DNA from: Candidatus Omnitrophota bacterium
GTDB taxonomy: Bacteria > Omnitrophota > Gorgyraeia > 2-01-FULL-45-10
Length of the DNA: 64,000 bases
Assembly (NCBI GenBank): GCA_028699255.1
Contig: JAQVUX010000003.1
Location: 82,654 to 146,653 of the forward strand
Direction of reading: 5' to 3'
Below are positions 3,414-63,409 of the stretch, in pieces. The notes under the pieces are model-generated. The model had not been told where the DNA came from and did not search any database. It saw nothing but the letters and a program-made list of their open reading frames with translations. Position numbers and translations under genes: made by a program. Every line of letters begins with the position of its first letter. The first letter of the stretch is position 1.

Positions 3414-4330
3414 AGATAGTTTTTATCGGTAGTGTTGAGATAGGATTGAAATGCCTCCGGCAGGTTGTGCGGGATAAGTGGAAAGTTGCCGCTGTATTTA
3501 CTTTGGCGAAAAAATATGCGCGCACGACGTCGGGCTATGTGGATTTTTCACCGTTTGCTAAAAAGGCCGGGATCAAAGTATTTAAAATAAAGAACGTGAA
3601 TGATCCGGTCAATGTTGGAAGAATTCGCAAGATAAACCCCGACCTTATTATCATATGCGGGTGCCAAAGCTTAGTGAGCAAAGAGATATTGGATATTCCA
3701 GGGTCGGGGACGGTAGGATTTCACTCGTCGCTTTTACCGAAATACAGGGGCCGTGCGCCGGTAAACTGGGCGATCATAAAAGGGGAGACAAAAACCGGGA
3801 TTACTATGTTTTACTGCTGTCCGGACCCTGACGCGGGCGACATTATCGCGCAGAAGAGTTTTCCTATAATGATCACAGATACCTGCAGGACGGTCTATGG
3901 TAAATCGGCCGGCGCCGCCTGTGAATTATTGCACGGGTATCTTTCAAAGATAAAAGACGGAACGGTAAAGCGGAAAAAGAATATATCAAATAGATATCCT
4001 TTATGGCCCAAAAGAAGGCCGGAGGATGGCCGAATCGACTGGAGTAAGGATTCGCTTGTGATACATAATTGGATCCGCGCGCTGACGCGGCCTTACCCGG
4101 GCGCCTTTACGTATAGCGGAGAGAAAAAATATTTCATATGGCGCTCGCGTTTCTCGAGACAGAAGAGGTGTGGGCCTGGCAGGCCCGGCGAGATAATAAA
4201 GGTAACGGGAAGAAGTGATAACCGGTCGTTCCTCGTTAAAACCGGGAAGGGCGATATATGGATATCGGATGTAATATATGAAAATGGCAGAGCAGTTCAA
4301 GACCTTTCTGTCGGGAGCAAATTTTCGTGA
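3410..4330 (+). CDS. Formyltransferase-family protein (sugar N-formyltransferase, Fmt/ArnA-N-like)
   Basis: Start at ATG 3410 (ATGA overlap with upstream stop). HSSLLPKYRGRAPVNWAII motif of the formyl_transf N-domain plus a C-terminal domain. Confidence 0.7.
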   Translation: MKIVFIGSVEIGLKCLRQVVRDKWKVAAVFTLAKKYARTTSGYVDFSPFAKKAGIKVFKIKNVNDPVNVGRIRKINPDLIIICGCQSLVSKEILDIPGSGTVGFHSSLLPKYRGRAPVNWAIIKGETKTGITMFYCCPDPDAGDIIAQKSFPIMITDTCRTVYGKSAGAACELLHGYLSKIKDGTVKRKKNISNRYPLWPKRRPEDGRIDWSKDSLVIHNWIRALTRPYPGAFTYSGEKKYFIWRSRFSRQKRCGPGRPGEIIKVTGRSDNRSFLVKTGKGDIWISDVIYENGRAVQDLSVGSKFS

Positions 4331-4340
4331 ATAAAGGCGT

Positions 4341-4964
4341 ATGCGTATAAATATAGCGATAATAGATTACGGGATGGGAAACTTAAGATCCGTCGTCAAT
4401 GCGTTCAATGTTCTCGGCCATTCTCCGGTCATTGTAAAAGATCCGGGGGATATTCGTAAAGCCGACCGGATCGTATTGCCGGGAGTAGGCGCATTCGGCG
4501 ATGCCATGCGGAACCTGCGCGATGCCGGATGGGTCGAAGTGATGGAAGAAGAGGTGCTGGGTAAAGAGAAACCCTTTTTAGGCATATGCCTCGGTATGCA
4601 ACTATTGGCGACTTTCGGCACCGAGCATGGCAAATGTTCCGGGTTGAACTGGATCCCGGGTAAAGTGATCCGTCTCGGCGAGGGGAAGCCCGGGCTTCGT
4701 GTCCCCCACATAGGCTGGAACGATGTGAGGGTTATAAAAAAAGAAGGCTTGTATGCCGGCCTTCCGGATCCGCAGTCCTTCTATTTTTTGCATAGTTATG
4801 TTCTTGTGCCGGATGATAAAGACATCGTAAGCGGTATCTGCGACTATGAAGGCGATTTTGTTGCCAGTATAAAATTGAAGAATATCTCGGCGATACAATT
4901 CCATCCGGAAAAAAGCCATAAGGCAGGGCTTAAAGTGCTCATGAATTTTCTGAGCGGAAATTGA
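4341..4964 (+). CDS. hisH: Imidazole glycerol phosphate synthase glutamine-amidotransferase subunit HisH-like (WbuY-like, glycan context)
   Basis: 207 aa. GICLGMQLL catalytic Cys, HIGWN, FHPEKS class-I GATase triad motifs. Confidence 0.8.
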   Translation: MRINIAIIDYGMGNLRSVVNAFNVLGHSPVIVKDPGDIRKADRIVLPGVGAFGDAMRNLRDAGWVEVMEEEVLGKEKPFLGICLGMQLLATFGTEHGKCSGLNWIPGKVIRLGEGKPGLRVPHIGWNDVRVIKKEGLYAGLPDPQSFYFLHSYVLVPDDKDIVSGICDYEGDFVASIKLKNISAIQFHPEKSHKAGLKVLMNFLSGN

Positions 4965-4971
4965 TAAGATT

Positions 4972-5760
4972 ATGTTAAAAAAACGGTTGATACCGGTTCT
5001 TTTATTGCAAAACGGGATGCTTGTTCGCAGTGAGGCTTTTAGTATACATCAGATAATCGGTAATCCGATAATCGAGGTACAGCGATTCAACCAATGGAAC
5101 GTGGATGAACTTATCTATTTGGATATAAGCCGATCGGATGATTACGACCTTCGTCGGGAAGATGGCAAGGTCCGCGGACTTAAAGATCCTCTCGTTATAT
5201 TGGAAGAGGTGAGCAAGACCTGCTTTATGCCTCTTACGTGGGGCGGCAGGATACGTACCATCGATGACATGAGACAACGGTTTTTAAGAGGGGCGGATAA
5301 GATAACTATCAATACCGCCGCGGTCGAGACGCCGGAATTGATTACGCAGGCCGCAAAGATTTTTGGCAGTCAGGCGGTTGTCGTATGTATAGACGCGAAG
5401 CGCTATGAGGGCGGGAGCCCGGAAGTTTTTATCGACGGCGGCCGTACTGCGACCGGGATGAGTCCCGAGGGTTGGGCTAAGAAAGCGGAAGGGTTTGGCG
5501 CCGGGGAGATATTACTCCAGAGTATAGATCGCGATGGCATGGGCAATGGTTATGACCTTGGCATGATACGCTCGGTAAGCGAAGCTGTTTCTATACCGGT
5601 CATAGCGCTGGGCGGAATCGGCGCTTACGGACAGTACGCGGACGGTATAAAAGCCGGAGCTTCCGCGGCCGCGGCGGCAAATATATGGCATTTTAAGGAA
5701 TTGTCCGACATGGGCGGGAAACGGGCCCTGTCGAAGAGCGGCGTAAATATAAGAATGTGA
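4972..5760 (+). CDS. hisF: HisF-like cyclase subunit (WbuZ-like, glycan context)
   Basis: 262 aa TIM-barrel HisF-like sequence (RLIPVLLLQNG...; GG...DRDGMGNGYDL...ALGGIG). Confidence 0.8.
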   Translation: MLKKRLIPVLLLQNGMLVRSEAFSIHQIIGNPIIEVQRFNQWNVDELIYLDISRSDDYDLRREDGKVRGLKDPLVILEEVSKTCFMPLTWGGRIRTIDDMRQRFLRGADKITINTAAVETPELITQAAKIFGSQAVVVCIDAKRYEGGSPEVFIDGGRTATGMSPEGWAKKAEGFGAGEILLQSIDRDGMGNGYDLGMIRSVSEAVSIPVIALGGIGAYGQYADGIKAGASAAAAANIWHFKELSDMGGKRALSKSGVNIRM

Positions 5761-5768
5761 GGTATAGG

Positions 5769-7001
5769 ATGAAGTTCTGTTCCAGGTGTATGTATCCTTC
5801 TATGGCGGCCACTCCGCTGACCTTTGACGACAAAGGGGTATGTTCCGGATGCAGGGTAGCGGGTCAGAAAAAAGTTATCGATTGGAAGGGGCGATTCCAG
5901 ATGTTGAAAAAACTGACGGATGAATACCGAGCCAAAAATAATTACGATATTCTTATCCCCGTAAGCGGCGGAAAAGACAGTTATTACCAGGCGCATATAG
6001 CCAGCAAAGAGCTTGGGCTGAAGGTTCTTTTGGTTACATATCACGGTAATAATTATCTTCCGGAAGGCGAATACAATCTCGCGCGGATGCGGGAACTCTT
6101 CGATTGCGATCACATAGTTGTCAAACCCGGCGTCGATGTATTGATAAAAATGAACCGCATCGGTTTCAAACTGCAGGGGGATATGAACTGGCATAATCAT
6201 TGCGGAATATTTACGGTTCCTATCCAGGAGGCGGTCAGGCATAAAGTACCTCTTATGATGTGGGGGGAACATGGGTTCATGGATATGGGTGGTATGTACT
6301 CTTACAGCGATTTTGTGGAATTTACCGCGAAGACCCGTCTTGAACACGGGTTGCGAGGATATGATTGGCACGATTTTACGGATGAAGGACTGGAGAAGCT
6401 CGGCCGCAGTGAACTCAAGGAAGGTCTAAGACCTAAAGATCTTCTGTGGGCGCAATATCCGCCTGATGAAGAGATAGCTTCCGTGGGAGTGCGCGGCATA
6501 TATTTAAGTAACTATCTCGATTGGGACGGCACGAAGAACGCCGAATTGGTAACGAAGCTATACGGGTGGAGGGCGGCACAACAACCCTTTGAGCGCACTT
6601 ACCGCAGTTTTTCAAATCTCGATGATATGCACGAGAACGGTATCCATGATTATCTGAAGTTCGTGAAATTCGGATATGGCAGGGCCAGCGATCACGCTTC
6701 CAAGGATATACGCGCAGGCGTCATGACGCGCGAAAAAGGAATAGAGATGGTGCGTAAGTACGACCATGTAAAGCCGCGGCGTGACCTGGAGCGGTGGCTT
6801 AAATATGTAAATATGACCGAAGAGGAATTTGACGCCATATGCGATACTTTCCGTGATCCGCGGGCCTGGCGCATAGAAGGCGGCCAATGGGTAAAGGACG
6901 ATATCTGGGGCGGTTCTTCCGCTTACGGGCCGGTTCATCTAAAGTGCCCCCAGAGAGCTAAATTTATGCGAGAGGAAAATTATGGCCGAACAAAAAAGTA
7001 A
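5769..7001 (+). CDS. N-acetyl sugar amidotransferase (WbuX/PseA/LfnA-like, PP-loop ATP-pyrophosphatase)
   Basis: Start ATG 5769 with GAGGT RBS. PP-loop SGGKDS. N-terminal CxxC...CSGC. Sits next to hisH/hisF paralogues. Confidence 0.7.
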   Translation: MKFCSRCMYPSMAATPLTFDDKGVCSGCRVAGQKKVIDWKGRFQMLKKLTDEYRAKNNYDILIPVSGGKDSYYQAHIASKELGLKVLLVTYHGNNYLPEGEYNLARMRELFDCDHIVVKPGVDVLIKMNRIGFKLQGDMNWHNHCGIFTVPIQEAVRHKVPLMMWGEHGFMDMGGMYSYSDFVEFTAKTRLEHGLRGYDWHDFTDEGLEKLGRSELKEGLRPKDLLWAQYPPDEEIASVGVRGIYLSNYLDWDGTKNAELVTKLYGWRAAQQPFERTYRSFSNLDDMHENGIHDYLKFVKFGYGRASDHASKDIRAGVMTREKGIEMVRKYDHVKPRRDLERWLKYVNMTEEEFDAICDTFRDPRAWRIEGGQWVKDDIWGGSSAYGPVHLKCPQRAKFMREENYGRTKK

Positions 7002-54586: not shown

Positions 54587-55227
54587 ATGACACCGGCGAT
54601 ATAATAGCGTCGATCAAGTCTTATCTGGAACTGGAGCGCGAATCCGGGATAGAGGAGTGCTGTGCGCCCTCCTCCGGAGCTTTGAAAGGGCTGAACGAGC
54701 TTAAAAAAGAGGTATTAGCTTGCCGCGAGTGCGGACTGCATCGCACCAGAATCAATGTCGTGTTCGGTTCCGGCGATCCTACAGCGCGGCTTATGTTCGT
54801 AGGCGAGGCGCCGGGCGCCGAAGAAGACAAGCAGGGGTTGCCTTTTGTAGGACGAGCCGGACAGCTTTTGACAAAAATAATCGAGTCAATGGGCTTAAAG
54901 CGCGAGGATGTGTACATCGCGAATATATTGAAGTGCCGGCCTCCGCAAAACCGTCCGCCGCTTCCGGAGGAGATAGCCGCCTGTCGAAACAATGTAAAGC
55001 GCCAGGTGGAGATAATAAATCCACGCGTTATATGTACGCTCGGAAAATTCGCGAGCCAGACTCTTCTTGAGACGGAGACGCCCATATCGGCCCTGAGGGG
55101 CGCCTTCCGGGAGTATAACGGTATAAAAGTAATGCCGACGTACCACCCCGCCTATCTTTTAAGAAATCCGGACGATAAAAAACTCGTCTGGCAGGATATG
55201 AAGAAGATATTGAAAGAGTTGCGTTAA
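54577..55227 (+). CDS. Uracil-DNA glycosylase, family 4 (Fe-S UDG)
   Basis: 216 aa. CRECGLH...; GEAPGAEEDKQGLPFVGRAGQLL hallmark of family-4 UDG. Confidence 0.8.
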   Translation: MRINDTGDIIASIKSYLELERESGIEECCAPSSGALKGLNELKKEVLACRECGLHRTRINVVFGSGDPTARLMFVGEAPGAEEDKQGLPFVGRAGQLLTKIIESMGLKREDVYIANILKCRPPQNRPPLPEEIAACRNNVKRQVEIINPRVICTLGKFASQTLLETETPISALRGAFREYNGIKVMPTYHPAYLLRNPDDKKLVWQDMKKILKELR

Positions 55228-55235
55228 AAGGAAAT

Positions 55236-57239
55236 ATGCCGAAATTTGCCGAGATCGCAGTAGCCCTTCCCGTAGACCGCACGTTCCACTACGCCATACC
55301 TGAAGCATTGTCGAACGACATAGCTGTAGGAAAACGCGTCTTCGTGCCTTTTCAGAATCGCGCGACAGTCGGTTATTGTGTCGGGTTATGCGATGTCGCG
55401 GATGTTAAGGACGTGAAGGCGATAATTTCCATTATCGATAAAGAGCCTCTATTGAGCGAGGAGATGCTCAAACTTACCCGATGGGTAAAGGAGAACTATT
55501 TCTGCTCATGGGGCGAAGCTATCGCGGCCGTTATACCCGCCGGGATAAAGAAGGGTAAGGAATCGATCGGCTCGAGGATAAAAGAAGCGCCCTTGTCTCC
55601 ATCGGAGGAATACGCCCCTTCGAGGCCGCACAGCCTGATGGAAGAGCAGTCGCACGCGTTAAAGTCTGTGATAGAAGCGATCGATAAACATGAGCACAGG
55701 GTCTTCCTCCTGCATGGTATAACGGCGAGCGGCAAGACCGAAGTATATTTACAGGCGATCGAGCACGTGCTTGGCGAGGGGCGGCAGACGATAGTGCTCG
55801 TTCCGGAAATATCGCTTACTCCTCAGACGATCGAGCGTTTTTCCTCGAGGTTCGGCGGCCACGTCGCCGTCATCCATTCGCGTCTCACGGCCGCGAAGAA
55901 GTTCCTGGAGTGGAAGAGGATAAAGGACGGCAAGGCAAATATCGTCGTGGGTGCGCGTTCCGCGGTATTCGCGCCATTCCGCAACCTGGGACTTATCATA
56001 ATAGACGAAGAGCACGAGACTTCCTATAAGCAGGACGATGTGCCGCGTTACCACGCGCGCGATGTCGCCGTGGAACGCGCCCGCATAAATAACTGCCCGC
56101 TTATACTGGGTAGCGCCACCCCGTCCCTGGAATCGTTTTACAAGGCGAAGGCCGGCGAATACAGGCTCGTCCGGCTCACAAAGAGGATCGACGAGCGGTT
56201 ACTGCCGAAGACGAAGATAGTCGATATGAGAATGGAACTTGCCGCGCGCCGGAGAATAATGATATTTTCCAAAGTCCTGCTCGACGCAATTGCCAATATG
56301 CTTTCGGCCGGTAAGCAGGCGATAATATTTTTAAACAGGCGCGGATTTTCGACATATATAAACTGCAAGAAATGCGGGTTCGTGGTTAAATGCAAACGAT
56401 GCGACACGGTAATGGTGTATCATTACGAGACGAAGAAGCTCATATGCCATTATTGCAATTATACGATTAATCCCCCGGATATCTGCCCCAGCTGTAAATC
56501 CGATTACATAAAATATCTGGGGCTCGGTACCGAGAAGGTGGAGAGCGAGATAAGCCGCAGTTTCCCGCACGCGAAGATAGCGAGAATGGATTCGGATACC
56601 ACCACCAAACGCGGTTCGCACGACAGGATACTCGGTGATTTCAAAGCGGGGAAGATAAACCTGCTCGTCGGCACGCAGATGATCGCCAAAGGGCTCGACT
56701 TCCCGGATGTGACTTTAGTAGGTGTCGTTTCGGCGGATGTGAGCCTGAATATCCCGGATTTCAGGGCGAGCGAGCGGACGTTTAACCTGCTTACGCAGGT
56801 CGGCGGCAGGGCGGGCCGCGGAGAAGACGGCGGGGAAGTCGTGATACAGACGTATACGCCGGAGCACTACGCTATAATCGCGGCGGCGAAGCATGATTAT
56901 CAGAAGTTTTACGATGAAGAGATCATTGAGCGTAAAGAGCTGATGTTCCCGCCGTTCATAAGCCTTACAAAGGTTACCGTCCGGGCGAGGAATGACGCGC
57001 TGGCGGCAAAGTCGGCTGAGGAATTGAAGAACGTGATAGCTACGGCCGGCCCTGAGATGCTTATCTCCGGCCCGTCACCGGCGCCGATAACCAGACTGCG
57101 TGGATACTACAGGTACAATATCATATTGAAGCACAAAGAGCGGCTCGTGATGTGCGCGCTCCTCAAAAAAGCGCTCACCGGTTTCCGTCGGCCGCACGGT
57201 GTCCTCATCGCCGTTGACGTCGACCCGGTGTCGATGTAG
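55236..57239 (+). CDS. priA: Primosomal protein N' (replication-restart helicase PriA)
   Basis: 667 aa. Walker A GITASGKTEV, DEEH, Cys-rich zinc module CKKCGF...CKRCD...CHYC...CPSC. C-terminal helicase domain. Confidence 0.9.
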   Translation: MPKFAEIAVALPVDRTFHYAIPEALSNDIAVGKRVFVPFQNRATVGYCVGLCDVADVKDVKAIISIIDKEPLLSEEMLKLTRWVKENYFCSWGEAIAAVIPAGIKKGKESIGSRIKEAPLSPSEEYAPSRPHSLMEEQSHALKSVIEAIDKHEHRVFLLHGITASGKTEVYLQAIEHVLGEGRQTIVLVPEISLTPQTIERFSSRFGGHVAVIHSRLTAAKKFLEWKRIKDGKANIVVGARSAVFAPFRNLGLIIIDEEHETSYKQDDVPRYHARDVAVERARINNCPLILGSATPSLESFYKAKAGEYRLVRLTKRIDERLLPKTKIVDMRMELAARRRIMIFSKVLLDAIANMLSAGKQAIIFLNRRGFSTYINCKKCGFVVKCKRCDTVMVYHYETKKLICHYCNYTINPPDICPSCKSDYIKYLGLGTEKVESEISRSFPHAKIARMDSDTTTKRGSHDRILGDFKAGKINLLVGTQMIAKGLDFPDVTLVGVVSADVSLNIPDFRASERTFNLLTQVGGRAGRGEDGGEVVIQTYTPEHYAIIAAAKHDYQKFYDEEIIERKELMFPPFISLTKVTVRARNDALAAKSAEELKNVIATAGPEMLISGPSPAPITRLRGYYRYNIILKHKERLVMCALLKKALTGFRRPHGVLIAVDVDPVSM

Positions 57240-57244
57240 AATGA

Positions 57245-57440
57245 GGAGGAAAATTTTTCGCTGTAGCGGCAGAATGTGCTGTATCGAGTGGTTTGTTCGG
57301 GACGCGCAATTTTTGGCCATGCAAAAAGTGCGCTCCGTAAAAGTTCTCGTACGCTGCCTCGAACTTTTAAGGCCCTCACAAACCACATCGCCACATCACA
57401 TTTCTGATTGAGCGAAAAATTTTATTGAAGGGCGGGCAGG
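57245..57440 (+). repeat. Tandem structured repeat unit 1 (~196 nt) in the priA-fmt spacer
   Basis: Starts GGAGGAAAATTTTTCG. Hairpin 57304-57333 with loop GCCATG. Conserved CTCGTACGCTGCCTCG. Ends GGGCGGGCAGG. Confidence 0.6.
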
Positions 57441-57449
57441 TAAGGATGG

Positions 57450-57650
57450 GGAGGAAAATTTTTCGTTCCCGGGAGGCATTCCCTCTCGGGGTTGGTATTC
57501 CGCAGGGACGCGAAATTTGTCAGCCATGTGAAAATTTCGCTCGAAAAAAATTGCTCGTACGCTGCCTCGCAATTTTTACGCCCTGCTCCATACCAACCCC
57601 TCGGGGCCCCTTCGACGGGAATCGAAAAATTTCCTGATGGGGCGGGCAGG
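57450..57650 (+). repeat. Tandem structured repeat unit 2 (~201 nt)
   Basis: Same 5' (GGAGGAAAATTTTTCG) and 3' (GGGCGGGCAGG) ends. Hairpin 57510-57540 has the same GCCATG loop but a different, still complementary, stem. Conserved CTCGTACGCTGCCTCG. Confidence 0.6.
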
Positions 57651-57836
57651 GGGCGTTATTGCAACGCGGGCGGAATAACCTCGCAGGTTGGCCAGGTGTT
57701 AGCGTTCAGATAACCTGCGAGGTTGGACGATTAGCGAGAGTAAATTAGCACCAGCGTCCTATTTCCACCCCGGGGTGGAAACATAGACACCTGTGGGAAT
57801 GAAATAGATAAGGTATAATCGTAGAATGCCCGGATA

Positions 57837-57999
57837 GGTGAGGGGACTACGCTTACGCGGCGACGTAAAAATCGCGAGCGGGCATGGTTCCCGAGCCAGG
57901 GTTAGCAGATATGCGAGGGAGAGCGAGCGATTTTTCTCGAGCGACATTTTTCACGCTGGGAAAAATGGAGCGGTCGGCGCGAAGCGTAGTCCCCTCACC
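57837..57999 (+). repeat. 163-bp element bounded by 27-bp imperfect terminal inverted repeats (MITE-like or long stem)
   Basis: 5' arm GGTGAGGGGACTACGCTTACGCGGCGAC (57837-57864). 3' arm GTCGGCGCGAAGCGTAGTCCCCTCACC (57973-57999). 18 bp perfect, then a 1-nt bulge and one mismatch. Interior has A5/T5 hairpins. Confidence 0.55.
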
Positions 58000-58031
58000 C
58001 AGGAGTTGGAAAGAAGAAAGCGGAGCTACGA

Positions 58032-58973
58032 ATGAACATCATATTTTTCGGCACATCAGAGTTCGCGATACCGGCGCTTCGGGCGCTCGTGGCATCCAGT
58101 CATAAGGTACTGGCCGTCGTAACACAACCCGACCGGCCGCGCGGACGGAATCTCAAGGTATCGCCATCGCCCATGAAGGCGTTGGCCGCGGCGAACGATC
58201 TGCCCGTGTTTCAACCCGTCAATGCCTCATCTACGGAGGCAGTTGACTATCTGAGGAAGCTCGGCGCGGATCTCTTCGTCGTCATATCATTCGGCCAGAT
58301 ACTGCGGCAGGACATACTCGCGATCCCCAGGCTGTATGCCGTCAATGTGCACGGTTCGCTTTTGCCCGCGTATCGCGGCGCTTCACCTACCAATCACGCG
58401 ATAATAAACGGCGATAAGACGAGCGGCGTTACGATTATCCGTATGAACGATAAGATGGACGAAGGCGATATAATATTGAAGCGCAAAACGCCGATCGGTT
58501 CGGAAGACACAAATATAACTCTGCACGAAAGGCTCTCGGAAATAGGCGCCTCCGTCCTCATGGAATTAGTCGACGCCCTCGCGAGCGGAAAGGCGGTCGC
58601 TTTTGAAAAACAGGACGACGCTACGGCTACATATGCGCCGAAACTGAAGAAAGAGGACGGCGCCATCGACTGGAATGAACCGGCCGCGAAGATTCATAAC
58701 AAGATCCGCGGCCTTCTGCCGTGGCCCGGCGCGTACACCTATTATAACGGAAAGATACTGAAAGTCCTGAAAGCCGCGCCTGTTTCTTCGGGTGCGGAGG
58801 CCGCAAAACCGGGCGAGGTCGTGAATATCTCCGACGATGCGGGTGTCGTTGTCCGTACGGGCTCAGGGGATATCGTCATGCAATATCTACAGCTCGAGGG
58901 TAAGAAGGATATGACCTCCACCGCATTCGTGCGCGGCCACAGGATCGCCCGCGGGTATACATTCGGTAAATAA
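58032..58973 (+). CDS. fmt: Methionyl-tRNA formyltransferase
   Basis: 313 aa. IIFFGTSEFA, HGSLLPAYRGASP(T)NHAIING motif. C-terminal domain. Confidence 0.85.
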   Translation: MNIIFFGTSEFAIPALRALVASSHKVLAVVTQPDRPRGRNLKVSPSPMKALAAANDLPVFQPVNASSTEAVDYLRKLGADLFVVISFGQILRQDILAIPRLYAVNVHGSLLPAYRGASPTNHAIINGDKTSGVTIIRMNDKMDEGDIILKRKTPIGSEDTNITLHERLSEIGASVLMELVDALASGKAVAFEKQDDATATYAPKLKKEDGAIDWNEPAAKIHNKIRGLLPWPGAYTYYNGKILKVLKAAPVSSGAEAAKPGEVVNISDDAGVVVRTGSGDIVMQYLQLEGKKDMTSTAFVRGHRIARGYTFGK

Positions 58974-59011
58974 TAAATCCATATAAAGAACCGGGTTTTT
59001 TAAAAGGAATA

Positions 59012-59899
59012 ATGGAAAAAGTTAAAGTATCTGTTATTGTTCCGACTTATAACAGGGCCGGTGCATTACCCCGGGCTATGAAAAGTGTGATTGAACAAAA
59101 TCGTAATGATATCGAAATTATTATAATTGACGATAATTCTTCGGATAATACGCCGGATGTCATAAGAAATATGCCGGACAAAAGAATAAAATATATAGGC
59201 CGCTCCGAGAATGGAGGGGTTTCCGCCGCGCGTAATGACGGTATCAGGATCGCGAAAGGCGAATATATCGCTTTCCTGGATTCCGACGATATCTGGGCTC
59301 CCGGCAAGCTCGAAGCGCAATTAAAAATCCTTGATGAAAATAAAAATATAGGAATGGTATGCACCAATGCCAATATAATTACCGGCGGAGATAGCAGATT
59401 ATTTATTTCCGGGCATGATGTCTCGCATGTTGTGTATGGAGCCAGAGAAAGGACCTCCGATAAGTTTCCCGGGGCGGTTATGGTAGCGCCTCCGAGCAGT
59501 TGGATGCTCAGGGCGGGCACGGTCAGTGAAATTGGATTTTTTGATGAAAGCATGAAGGTGTGGGAAGATTGCGACTACTTTGTGAGGATCGCGCAAAAAA
59601 CGGACGCATATTTCCTGAATATGCCGTTAATCGATAAATATACGGGGGATAGCGGCCAGCTTAGTCGCGACACCCTTATCTGGCATGAAGGCAAAAAACT
59701 ATTTTACACGAAACATTTTCCGTCGATGAGTAAGGATAAACAATATCTTTTCCAATTTTATAAAGGCATGGGTAAAGATTGTTTGATATTGAAGAGATGG
59801 AACGACGCCACGGGTTGGTTTACGAAAGCGTTGCGGATAAAACCCGTCGACCTGAATTTGTACTGGAAAATTATCAGAGCGCGTGCCCGCCAAAACTAA
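59012..59899 (+). CDS. GT2 glycosyltransferase
   Basis: 295 aa. VSVIVPTYNRA...DDNSSD...DSDD motifs. Confidence 0.75.
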   Translation: MEKVKVSVIVPTYNRAGALPRAMKSVIEQNRNDIEIIIIDDNSSDNTPDVIRNMPDKRIKYIGRSENGGVSAARNDGIRIAKGEYIAFLDSDDIWAPGKLEAQLKILDENKNIGMVCTNANIITGGDSRLFISGHDVSHVVYGARERTSDKFPGAVMVAPPSSWMLRAGTVSEIGFFDESMKVWEDCDYFVRIAQKTDAYFLNMPLIDKYTGDSGQLSRDTLIWHEGKKLFYTKHFPSMSKDKQYLFQFYKGMGKDCLILKRWNDATGWFTKALRIKPVDLNLYWKIIRARARQN

Positions 59900-60040
59900 A
59901 AACAGAGTAAAATTCTGTAAATAATTTTTCCTCTGTGTTATAATCCAGAATATCCTACTTCGCTGTAGCAGTCAGGCCGTATGAAGCTTCGTAGAGATTC
60001 CTGCGAAGTTTCACGAGAATAACTGGAGAAACGAAGCAGA

Positions 60041-61356: not shown

Positions 61357-62397
61357 ATGCCTGAACTAAGACGCGATCCGGTAGTTGGAAGATGGGTTAT
61401 AATTTCGACCGAAAGGGCCAAAAGGCCGGACCATTTCGCTATGGGCAACGCGGTCGAGAAAGAGGCTTTGGCGCCTGGCGAGAAGTGCCCGTTTTGCGAA
61501 GGCAATGAATCACTTACGCCTCCGGAGATATATGCTTCGAGAAAGCACGGCACCCGGGCTAATGGCCCGGGTTGGGACATACGGGTGGTGCCCAGCATAT
61601 CGCCTCTTTTGCAGATAGAAGGTAATCTCGACCGACACGGCCACGGCATGTACGACCTTATAAACGCGCGCGGGGCGCACGAGATAGTCGTCGAGTCGCC
61701 GAATCATGTTACGGAGGCGGAGCTTTCCAAAGAGCAGGTGGTCAAAAGCTATAACGTTATTCTCGACCGGATACAGGATCTCGAGAAAGATAAAGAGATA
61801 AAATACGTCCTCATCTTCAAAAATTACGGCGCGGCGGCCGGCGGCGGGCACATCCAGCACGCCAGGACTCAGATAATAGGTACGCCGGTAAATCTCAAGA
61901 GGGTCAAAGAAGAGCTCGCCGGCAGTAAAGCTTATTACGATTACAAAGACAGGTGCATCTTCTGTGATATGCTGAAGCAGGAGCTGTCTTCGGGCGAACG
62001 CGTAATGGCCGAGTCGAAACATTTTGTCGCATTGGCCGCATTCGCCGCGCGATTTCCCTTCGAGACATGGATAATGCCGAAAGAACATTCGTGCGATTTT
62101 TACAAAGTGGACAGGGCCAGGATAGCCGACTTCGCGGAACTTATGATATTGCTTTTTGCGAAGATGCGCAAAGTTATAGGCGATTTTCCGTTTAATTTTG
62201 TACTGCATACGGCTCCGTTCAGGCGCAATGTCACCTCCCGCGGTTACTGGGAGACGATCGAGTCGGATTATCACTGGCATTTTGAGATACTACCTATACT
62301 CACCAGAGTCGCGGGTTTTGAGTGGGGCAGTGGTTTTTATATAAATCCTCTTCCGCCTGAAGACGCGTGCAAAGCGGTAAAAGAGGCAAAGGTTTAA
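61357..62397 (+). CDS. Galactose-1-phosphate uridylyltransferase-like protein (HIT-like GalT family), paralogue with non-canonical active-site motif
   Basis: 346 aa. CPFCEGNES zinc motif, FKNYGAAAGGG. Has HIQHARTQ where canonical HPH(G/S)Q is expected. Confidence 0.7.
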   Translation: MPELRRDPVVGRWVIISTERAKRPDHFAMGNAVEKEALAPGEKCPFCEGNESLTPPEIYASRKHGTRANGPGWDIRVVPSISPLLQIEGNLDRHGHGMYDLINARGAHEIVVESPNHVTEAELSKEQVVKSYNVILDRIQDLEKDKEIKYVLIFKNYGAAAGGGHIQHARTQIIGTPVNLKRVKEELAGSKAYYDYKDRCIFCDMLKQELSSGERVMAESKHFVALAAFAARFPFETWIMPKEHSCDFYKVDRARIADFAELMILLFAKMRKVIGDFPFNFVLHTAPFRRNVTSRGYWETIESDYHWHFEILPILTRVAGFEWGSGFYINPLPPEDACKAVKEAKV

Positions 62398-62401
62398 CGG
62401 A

Positions 62402-63409
62402 ATGAACGAGCTAAGGCGGGATCCGATAACGGCGAGATGGATAATAGTTCCGATGGATAAGCCCGCGGAAGTCGCCAGTCTTATTACGGAACAGCCGCCA
62501 AAGATCAACAAGAACAGCTGTCCTTTCTGCTACGGCGGCGAGACGCTGACTCCGCCGGAGATCGTGGCGCATAGGGAAGTCGGCGGGCCGAATACTCCTA
62601 ATTGGACCGTCAGGGTCGTGCCGAACAAGTTCCCGGCGCTCCGCATAGAGGGCGACTTGAACCGCGAAGGCATCGGCGTATTCGACCTCATGAATGGCGT
62701 CGGGGCGCACGAGGTCATAGTGGATACGCCCGACCATTTCAGGGACATGGCGGACTTAACGCACGCGGAAGCGGAAGAGGTCGTGTGGGCTTACCGGGCG
62801 AGGTCTCTGGACCTGCGCAGGGATAAACGGTTCAAATATATACTTATATTCAAAAATTACGGCAAATCCGCCGGCGCGTCGCTCGAGCATCCTCACAGCC
62901 AGCTTATCGCGCTTCCCATTGTGCCCAAAAGGGTGCATGAGGAGATGGAAGGCGCGGCCAAATATTACGATTACAAGGACAGATGCGTATTTTGCGACAT
63001 AGTGCGGGAAGAGCTGGAAGAAAAAGACAGGATAGTGTATAATGACGAATTGTTCGTAGCGTTTTGTCCTTACGTTTCGCGGTTTCCCTACGAGATATGG
63101 GTATTGCCGAAGAAACACATGTCCGATTTCGTAAATATCGACAGGGACTATGTCGCGTCTTTCGCCAGGGCTATGAGGGATTCCCTGGCCAGGATAAAAG
63201 GGTTGTTGAAAGATCCCTCGTATAATTTTATAATACATACTTCGCCGATAAACGGTCATGAGAGAGCTGATTACCACTGGCACGTCGAGATAATGCCCAA
63301 GCTTTCCAAAGTCGCCGGTTTCGAATGGGGGAGCGGCTTTTATGTTAATCCGGTACTGCCGCATACCGCCGCGAAGGATCTGATGAGCGTTGTAATTCCG
63401 GATAAATAA
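62402..63409 (+). CDS. galT: Galactose-1-phosphate uridylyltransferase (GalT family, canonical HPHSQ)
   Basis: 335 aa. CPFCYGGE, FKNYGKSAGASLEHPHSQ. Confidence 0.75.
   Translation: MNELRRDPITARWIIVPMDKPAEVASLITEQPPKINKNSCPFCYGGETLTPPEIVAHREVGGPNTPNWTVRVVPNKFPALRIEGDLNREGIGVFDLMNGVGAHEVIVDTPDHFRDMADLTHAEAEEVVWAYRARSLDLRRDKRFKYILIFKNYGKSAGASLEHPHSQLIALPIVPKRVHEEMEGAAKYYDYKDRCVFCDIVREELEEKDRIVYNDELFVAFCPYVSRFPYEIWVLPKKHMSDFVNIDRDYVASFARAMRDSLARIKGLLKDPSYNFIIHTSPINGHERADYHWHVEIMPKLSKVAGFEWGSGFYVNPVLPHTAAKDLMSVVIPDK

Follow-up and report, generated by a model that had tools for sequence, protein, structure and literature searches.

A 163-bp hairpin upstream of fmt in a Candidatus Omnitrophota genome: a very probable member of a putatively undescribed family of intergenic hairpin repeats

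The window analysed here, a stretch of 64,000 nucleotides from a Candidatus Omnitrophota bacterium, carries priA and fmt in the same orientation, separated by a spacer of 792 nt that contains three related hairpin elements, called copies 1, 2 and 3. Only the last of these had been noticed in an earlier sequence-only reading, which also placed fmt directly downstream of it, in agreement with the Pfam assignment. The features of the region are the following, where R1 and R2 are the two covariance models described below.

55236-57239, plus strand: priA, the gene upstream (Pfam; NCBI MDD3905601.1, Candidatus Omnitrophota MAG)
57250-57423, plus strand: copy 1, standard core, type-A middle stem, terminal repeat AAAATTTTTCG/CGAAAAATTTT (R1, 103.9 bits)
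57455-57633, plus strand: copy 2, standard core, type-B middle stem (R1, 93.6 bits; R2, 51.3 bits)
57837-57999, minus strand: copy 3, very probably a variant-core member of the family, without AT-rich terminal repeat (R2 match and folding)
57837-57864, no strand assigned: left arm of the closing stem P1 of copy 3, GGTGAGGGGACTACGCTTACGCGGCGAC (inverted-repeat match and folding)
57867-57935, minus strand: hairpin H2, with a 9-bp stem AAAAATCGC (57867-57875) / GCGATTTTT (57927-57935)
57875-57888, minus strand: invariant motif ACCATGCCCGCTCG in minus-strand reading (invariant in alignment A4)
57889-57919, minus strand: variable apical insert (H3 region), 31 nt in copy 3
57920-57929, minus strand: invariant motif CGCTCGCTCT in minus-strand reading
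57945-57967, minus strand: hairpin H1, 8 bp, with the minus-strand loop CCAGCGT within the subfamily signature CCCAGCGTG
57973-57999, no strand assigned: right arm of P1, GTCGGCGCGAAGCGTAGTCCCCTCACC (inverted-repeat match and folding)
58032-58973, plus strand: fmt, the gene downstream (Pfam)

Copy 1 begins 10 nt past the stop codon of priA. At the other end of the spacer, copy 3 ends 32 nt before the ATG of fmt, and the Shine-Dalgarno motif of fmt (GGAG, 58022-58025) lies outside the hairpin. Copies 1 and 2 have a common core and an AT-rich terminal inverted repeat and differ in their middle stems. The core of copy 3 is collinear with that of copy 2 only as the reverse complement (27 nt at 89% and 15 nt at 93%); a plus-strand alignment of copy 3 to copies 1 and 2 was tried and is poorer than the minus-strand alignment.

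Several further features of the region should be noted. Copies 1 and 2 have similar left flanks (GTAGAATGAGGAG/GTAAGGATGGGGAG, 57236-57249 and 57441-57454) and similar right flanks (TTGAAGGGCGGGCAGG/CTGATGGGGCGGGCAGG, 57424-57440 and 57634-57650), which, together with their different middle stems, suggests either a tandem duplication that was followed by stem replacement or a longer repeat unit. Overlapping the stop codon of priA is TTGACG-N17-TAGAAT (57214-57242), a strong promoter-like site (10 of 12 matches) from which transcription would begin at the first base of copy 1. Between copies 2 and 3 lies a perfect 13-bp inverted repeat, AACCTCGCAGGTT / AACCTGCGAGGTT (57677-57689 and 57712-57724), whose 17-mer ATAACCTCGCAGGTTGG occurs in no other fetched locus. 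The spacer also contains a perfect 20-bp palindrome, TTTCCACCCCGGGGTGGAAA (57762-57781), which recurs exactly in three loci (L008, L048, L052) of one other Omnitrophota MAG and as a near copy in the priA-fmt spacer of L106, and which looks like a separate short REP-like repeat. The string GTAGAATG is repeated at 57821-57828, 9 nt ahead of copy 3, and a similar string, GTAAGGATG, stands ahead of copy 2. The TATAAT hexamer that had been reported upstream of copy 3 is present, one position away from where it was first placed, at 57814-57819. Further downstream, the window carries two tandem GalT-like paralogues (galactose-1-phosphate uridylyltransferase family; 61357-62397 and about 62400-63400) with stretches of 75-76% identity 1030 nt apart, a pair that is also found in relatives.

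The outermost 18 nt of the two arms of copy 3 (57837-57854 and 57982-57999) are 100% complementary, exactly as the sequence-only reading had it. Shuffling the window gave an expectation of 0.01 matches for the 18-nt arm, none of 100 shuffles contained two matches, and nothing comparable appeared in shuffled sequence. Beyond these 18 bp, P1 continues through an A.A mismatch, CGCG/CGCG, a G.G mismatch and CGAC/GTCG to a total of about 26 bp; the additional 8 bp described earlier are therefore present, interrupted by two 1x1 mismatches rather than by a bulge plus a mismatch. The interior counts 108 nt instead of the 107 nt given before, and the A/T hairpin with the ACGCTGG loop that had been seen in it, CATTTTTC-ACGCTGG-GAAAAATG, is located at 57945-57967. 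The stem of H2 encloses a variable insert and the two motifs that are unpaired and invariant. The predicted folding energy of copy 3 is -86.7 kcal/mol (z=-7.1) for the plus strand and -77.4 kcal/mol (z=-7.5) for the minus strand.

The ends of copy 3 are of a different nature from those of its neighbours. Its flanks read ...GGATA and CAGGA..., and no AT-rich terminal repeat, (T)AAAATTTTTCG / CGAAAAATTTT(A), is found within 70 nt of it. As one of two options, the sequence-only reading had proposed a MITE bounded by the 27-bp arms, to be checked by a search for further copies of the arm; a nature of these arms as conserved transposon ends is not supported. The 18-mer occurs at a single locus only among the fetched loci (about 750 kb of related sequence), and the inner approximately 10 bp of the arms align with helix P1 of the family model, which is a variable inner helix. 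In strain L002, with 96% fmt identity, the right arm of P1 carries two substitutions; both Logan contigs of the strain with this fmt identity end inside repeats, and the 5' arm was not recovered. Copy 3 is an inverted, end-truncated copy that keeps only the core and the inner stem, and its unique arms and missing terminal repeat imply that it may be inert. No terminator-like site was found at copy 3, and no T run comes after the element on either strand; it does not qualify as an intrinsic terminator, a GC-rich stem with a directly adjoining U tract.

The members of the family are about 175 nt long, with 170-176 nt for the usual standard member. A standard copy consists of the terminal repeat TAAAATTTTTCG, a middle stem of type A or B, a three-way junction, and a returning arm that ends in CGAAAAATTTTA; the two hairpins at the junction are H1, with the loop RCCATG, and H2, with the loop TCGTACGCTGCCTC. 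The order of elements along the scaffold is outer and middle stem, GGGAC junction, H1, CTCGG(T/A)AAAAT linker, H2 with an expandable apex, ATTTT(A/C)RACGCCC, and returning stem. In the variant core, H2 contains two unpaired motifs that are invariant, together with a variable insert that shows covariation and ranges in length from roughly 20 to 100 nt in variant copies other than copy 3. In most copies, TAAAATTTTTCG/CGAAAAATTTTA forms a closing AT-rich inverted repeat, of which 4-14 bp (mostly 8-11) match without interruption; about a quarter of the variant copies lack it. The possibility that these AT-rich ends represent a duplicated palindromic target (AAAATTTT) was considered and rejected, because variant ends change symmetrically as inverted, not as direct, repeats. 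The same scaffold or terminal repeat is also seen in a third subfamily, F2, and in elements whose interiors are unrelated (L108, L109).

Conservation peaks in the centre of the family and not at its ends. The mean identity of the core between genomes is 83%, and an exact 15-nt core motif is common to the MAGs of seven species. Compensatory changes were found in 18 of 33 predicted pairs of the standard core (50-sequence alignment) and in 20 of 40 pairs of the variant; for the latter, a hand-drawn structure pairs 92% of the cells, against 33-55% with slid partners. Among 21 copies, H3 shows compensatory changes in all six pairs, and the 9-bp stem of H2 (helix 3) is invariant. A loop-loop pseudoknot between H1 and H2 was discarded, as only 4 bp are possible by eye and no covariation was seen. 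The aligned orientation is the usual orientation of the genes. The opposite strand folds more stably in all 44 standard copies compared, by about 8.6 kcal/mol on average, and copies 1-3 likewise favour the opposite strand; the asymmetry is due in part to A.C mismatches, whose counterparts on the other strand are G.U pairs.

The assignment of copy 3 to this family was made with two covariance models, R1, built from the 50-sequence standard-core alignment, and R2, built from 21 metagenome copies only and containing no sequence of the window. The best match of R2 in the window is copy 3 (57845-57991, minus strand, 70.8 bits, E=2e-20), and it covers model positions 1-144, i.e. the full length; R2 also matches copies 2 and 1, with 51 and 28 bits, respectively. 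The match of R1 to the minus strand of copy 3 is weak (14.4 bits, E=0.15), and membership in the standard-core subfamily, with the H2 loop TCGTACGCTGCCTC, was rejected on this ground. The three signatures of the variant, namely the H1 loop CCCAGCGTG, CGCTCGCTCT, and ACCATGCCCGCTCG..ATTTT, are collinear on the minus strand of copy 3. An intermediate detected by R1 directly after priA in another species (L029:6028-6222) contains a variant core inside standard arms, and this core resembles the minus strand of copy 3 in the H1 loop CCCAGCGTG, the expanded H2 and the motif ACCATGCCCGCTCG. This intermediate and R2 settle the question of membership: judged from sequence and predicted structure, copy 3 very probably belongs to the Omnitrophota hairpin-repeat family, as a member of its variant-core subfamily. 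A search of Rfam 15 at E<=10 gave no relevant match in window positions 55000-60000 or in L008 2300-4200, and nothing like the family was found in the searched literature on Omnitrophota/Omnitrophica repeats. The family appears to be previously undescribed.

A search for the exact standard-core pattern of copies 1 and 2 in bacteria and archaea, with each species represented by one genome, yielded 50 matches at 48 loci, all of them in seven Candidatus Omnitrophota MAGs, the richest three with 16, 13 and 10 exact copies; R1 picks up further, diverged copies. A scan of metagenome contigs with the variant motif ACCATGCCCGCTCG plus NNATTTT gave 50 loci, about 47 of which are real copies, and neither core was present in the viral contigs scanned. 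Within the collections scanned, the family is restricted to Candidatus Omnitrophota. Relative to the flanking genes, standard copies lie in sense orientation in 28 cases and in antisense orientation in 9, and variant copies in sense in 17 and opposite in 6. Among the 62 copies that are co-oriented with the upstream gene, 40 start within about 10 nt of its stop codon, and a TAA stop very often forms part of the terminal repeat. Copies in the opposite orientation, including copy 3 with its 32 nt, have their 5' end near the start of the next gene. The side of the element that adjoins a gene is always its 5' side.

The repeats also coincide with assembly breaks. Short-read contigs (Logan, JGI) end inside repeats at L001, L002, L006, L105, L068, L075, L078, L083, L085 and L094, and in two independent samples the contig ends 71-76 nt upstream of fmt; such breaks are expected if core 31-mers or longer recur in the respective genomes. 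Two motifs were observed next to repeats. A conserved module TTTGCAA(C/T)ATCCCGAGGCCTATGGCCGA.GG stands directly outside one repeat end at three unrelated loci (L003 5740-5790, L008 2520-2560, and L024 near 1165-1215), and TTGTGAAGGATTTGTGAACGGCCTTTAAAT, which resembles a -35/-10 promoter pair (TTGTGA-N17-TTTAAAT), is found 3' of the repeat at another three (L031, L043, L049).

Many of the sites are shared between species. For 23 of 49 metagenome variant copies, flanking proteins are shared with standard copies in MAGs, mostly at 40-90% identity, and both flanks match in six variant/standard pairs. Unrelated housekeeping genes border these sites (ilvC-leuA, queA-tgt, dnaK, mgsA, priA-fmt and others), and the species that share them are only 41-63% identical at fourfold-degenerate sites. 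At the same site in different species, the subfamily and sometimes the orientation of the core differ; recombination from arm to arm would flip the core in place. Identity is 0.864 within and 0.828 between genomes, and 30 of 42 copies have their nearest neighbour in the same genome. This slightly higher likeness within genomes points to local copying or gene conversion.

The priA-fmt spacers of nine related species are long throughout, at 277-792 nt, and are packed with hairpin repeats that differ in kind, number and orientation, from which it follows that there is no conserved fmt leader. The structured fmt 5' untranslated region that the sequence-only reading had offered as an alternative is contradicted by these differences. 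The unique arm, which that reading had associated with such a leader, was indeed confirmed in the 750 kb, but the orthologous loci do not have a conserved leader structure. In relatives, other long hairpins fill the fmt-proximal part of the spacer (L005:5766-5950, L109 about 2310-2440, L108 2215-2470), none of them matched by R1 or R2; L108 and L109 also carry elements that have the same AT-rich terminal repeat around unrelated interiors. In L109, Cas3-like and Cas5d genes (3612-5945) follow directly after fmt, in the place of the CBS-domain gene of the window.

In some relatives, orphan ORFs or fragments are found between two repeat copies (L008:2844-3590, L022:5158-5976, L029:6240-6608, L106 about 2056-2200). 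The ORFs of L008 and L022, which are mutually unrelated, lie between inverted copies, and the small ORF of L029 lies within its priA-fmt spacer. Two of the orphan ORFs have a low GC content (0.33 and 0.39, compared with 0.47-0.49 for their loci). The three full ORFs (L008, L022, L029) gave no Pfam match, and that of L008 also gave no PADLOC match. The block of ORF and element in L008 is 97% identical to L053, and the left coding flank is about 75% identical.

In our view, the element is best explained as a member of an undescribed Omnitrophota hairpin family of non-autonomous, REPIN/ERIC-like repeats; we give this reading a probability of about 0.6, a value that blends membership and mechanism. 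The mechanism as a whole is proposed only tentatively. The elements would be non-autonomous and would persist at fixed intergenic sites. Gene conversion or a single-stranded hairpin intermediate would serve to copy or homogenise them within a genome, and recognition in trans would make use of the invariant unpaired core motifs. The conserved core, the covarying stems and the occupation of the same sites at near-saturated synonymous divergence point to selection for a single-stranded fold and for specific unpaired motifs, and a trans-acting partner should therefore exist. No transposase or RAYT partner turned up in the approximately 750 kb inspected, and the fetched loci yielded no longer element that combines the termini of the family with an ORF. 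In view of their location inside operons and the typical start at the upstream stop codon, the elements are probably transcribed together with the neighbouring genes. The 5' untranslated region of the fmt mRNA would then carry a stem-loop of roughly -85 kcal/mol, with the ribosome-binding site unobstructed. Any effect on fmt would presumably be generic, on mRNA processing or stability, and not specific regulation of this gene; the spread of the family across unrelated housekeeping-gene junctions also argues against copy 3 as an fmt-specific control element.

The sequence-only reading had called the element MITE-like, and the label is broadly right in so far as the family is a dispersed, multi-copy hairpin family in both orientations; no other copy of the arm 18-mer and no transposase partner was found in about 750 kb of related sequence, and no target-site duplication was detected at copy 3 or across the family. 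A classical MITE in the strict sense, i.e. a deletion derivative of an IS with a DDE transposase that moves by cut-and-paste via its terminal inverted repeats, with copy 3 as a decayed relic, is unlikely. It would account for the AT-rich inverted repeat that closes most copies, for the fact that the same ends bound unrelated interiors (L108, L109; F2), and for the dispersal in both orientations with up to 16 copies in a single MAG, and the repeat itself would mask a duplicated palindromic TA. However, there is no excess of direct repeats across the family (3 of 37 copies at k=2, with 2.4 expected, and none at k>=3), and a longer, ORF-bearing element with these ends was not seen in the fetched loci. 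In addition, the centre is better conserved than the ends, changes in the terminal repeat affect both of its sides at once (L010, L034, L016), orthologous sites are shared by species with so little fourfold-degenerate identity, and about a quarter of the variant copies as well as copy 3 are devoid of the AT-rich ends. The absence of a target duplication is what IS200/IS605-like chemistry predicts, and it would fit the idea that the repeats are folded single-stranded DNA substrates of a dedicated enzyme, a RAYT/HUH-type transposase or a site-specific recombinase, and act as portable sites of excision, copying or insertion. The hairpins with their compensatory changes and unpaired, invariant motifs, the small inverted GC palindrome in each type-B arm, which is reminiscent of a REP doublet, and the strand asymmetry that is consistent in 44 of 44 copies are in line with this idea, and so are the low-GC orphan ORFs between inverted copies, the small ORF in the L029 spacer, and the ORF and element block that is 97% identical between two species with flanks at about 75%. 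It is nevertheless improbable, given that no link of the repeats to a RAYT or integrase was found in about 750 kb (the XerC/D-like gene beside L008 is probably a housekeeping gene), that no integron core sites GTTRRRY/RYYYAAC were seen on reading the sequences, that most flanking genes are core genes and not cassettes, and that the cassette cases are few and anecdotal. An even bolder version, and a long shot, is that the repeats are folded single-stranded recognition sites of a dedicated enzyme, dispersed as docking sites directly behind housekeeping stop codons, at which accessory gene cassettes are inserted, passed between species and lost. If this were true, Omnitrophota would possess a new machinery for site-specific gene acquisition, scattered and integron- or REPIN-like, with a conserved three-way-junction core, and copy 3 would be a disabled site.

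Two further readings place the function in RNA. A multi-copy gene for a small structured RNA on the minus strand, or a self-cleaving ribozyme, would be consistent with the three-way junction, the invariant unpaired nucleotides and the variable peripheral helices, all typical of functional RNAs, and the absence from Rfam 15 would allow a new class. This is very unlikely, however, because the start of sense copies right at the stop codon of the preceding gene leaves a promoter no space, copy 3 has no terminator behind it on either strand, the orientation of the core flips at orthologous sites, and both strands fold strongly. Hardly credible and largely refuted is an fmt-specific 5' leader in which the long stem controls translation or transcription of fmt. 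The position 32 nt upstream of the start codon would be suitable, a weak promoter-like site (ATGAAA-N17-TAGAAT, 57799-57827) would place the hairpin about 10 nt downstream of the -10 box, and several relatives have a long hairpin near fmt (L005:5766-5950; L109). But dozens of unrelated loci carry the same core, the spacers of nine species differ in subfamily, number and orientation, the L005 hairpin is recognised by neither model, and the Shine-Dalgarno motif is not sequestered.

The non-autonomous hairpin repeat is thus the preferred reading, and it has practical consequences. For Omnitrophota, an abundant phylum that is uncultured, neither Rfam 15 nor the searched literature was found to describe the non-coding repertoire. 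Breaks in short-read assemblies can be predicted from the repeats, which also mark operon junctions, and the two covariance models would allow anyone to annotate the family. An annotation of the hairpin of copy 3 as riboswitch or leader of fmt should be avoided.

Comparison with known repeat systems puts these features into context. REPINs are REP doublets that form hairpins and are mobilised by RAYT transposases, and compensatory changes are common in these hairpins (PMC3116915). Covariation alone is therefore no proof of an RNA function. Like REPINs, the Omnitrophota elements are hairpins of about 100-200 nt that are non-coding, lie outside genes and occur in multiple copies, with predicted folding in single-stranded DNA or mRNA, compensatory changes and higher-order clusters, and the small inverted GC palindromes of the type-B arms are like a REP doublet. 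In REPINs, the terminal REPs are conserved and the spacer is free, whereas here the central three-way junction and the loops are most conserved; the AT-rich terminal repeat, the precise abutment on stop codons and the absence of a RAYT in about 750 kb are further differences. The pair of conserved, inverted REPs around a looser spacer that marks the REPIN class is not seen here, and the arms vary and covary.

ERIC/IRU and related enterobacterial units are imperfect palindromes of 127-168 bp (PMC3184786, PMC2759123). The family resembles them in size, as imperfect intergenic palindromes, probably transcribed, between housekeeping genes, in its occurrence in both orientations and in having no known transposase, but there is no sequence relation. 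ERIC forms one long, simple hairpin whose ends are flanked by TA, unlike the branched core, the modular stems and the several subfamilies on one scaffold that are found here. The Correia/NEMIS elements of Neisseria are 100-155 bp long, have terminal inverted repeats, occur in hundreds of copies beside genes and are transcribed into hairpins; they share with the family the size class, the terminal inverted repeats and the nature of gene-adjacent hairpin repeats. Their ends, however, are 26 bp long and conserved, with a TA duplication, whereas the ends of the Omnitrophota elements are AT-rich and about 8-14 bp long, and the arms of copy 3 are unique.

Integron attC sites are imperfect inverted repeats right after a stop codon, in which structure is conserved more than stem sequence, the centre is variable and folding is strand-specific. 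The imperfect inverted repeat with its start behind a stop codon, the stronger conservation of structure than of stem sequence, the variable central part and the strand-specific folding are common to both, but the family has no R''/R' core sites, no intI nearby, dispersed core-gene neighbours and a strongly conserved core. Identity with attC was accordingly rejected: neither GTTRRRY nor RYYYAAC is seen by eye at the ends, and the neighbours in the window are priA, UDG and fmt. The REP elements of E. coli, about 35 nt long, lie near stop codons and have been proposed to modulate translation and mRNA decay; the family is similar in forming stable hairpins a few nucleotides from the upstream stop codon, inside operons. 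The nearest counterparts among known repeats are the REPIN, ERIC and Correia-type hairpins, from which the family is set apart by its conserved centre, its precise abutment on stop codons and its modular stems.
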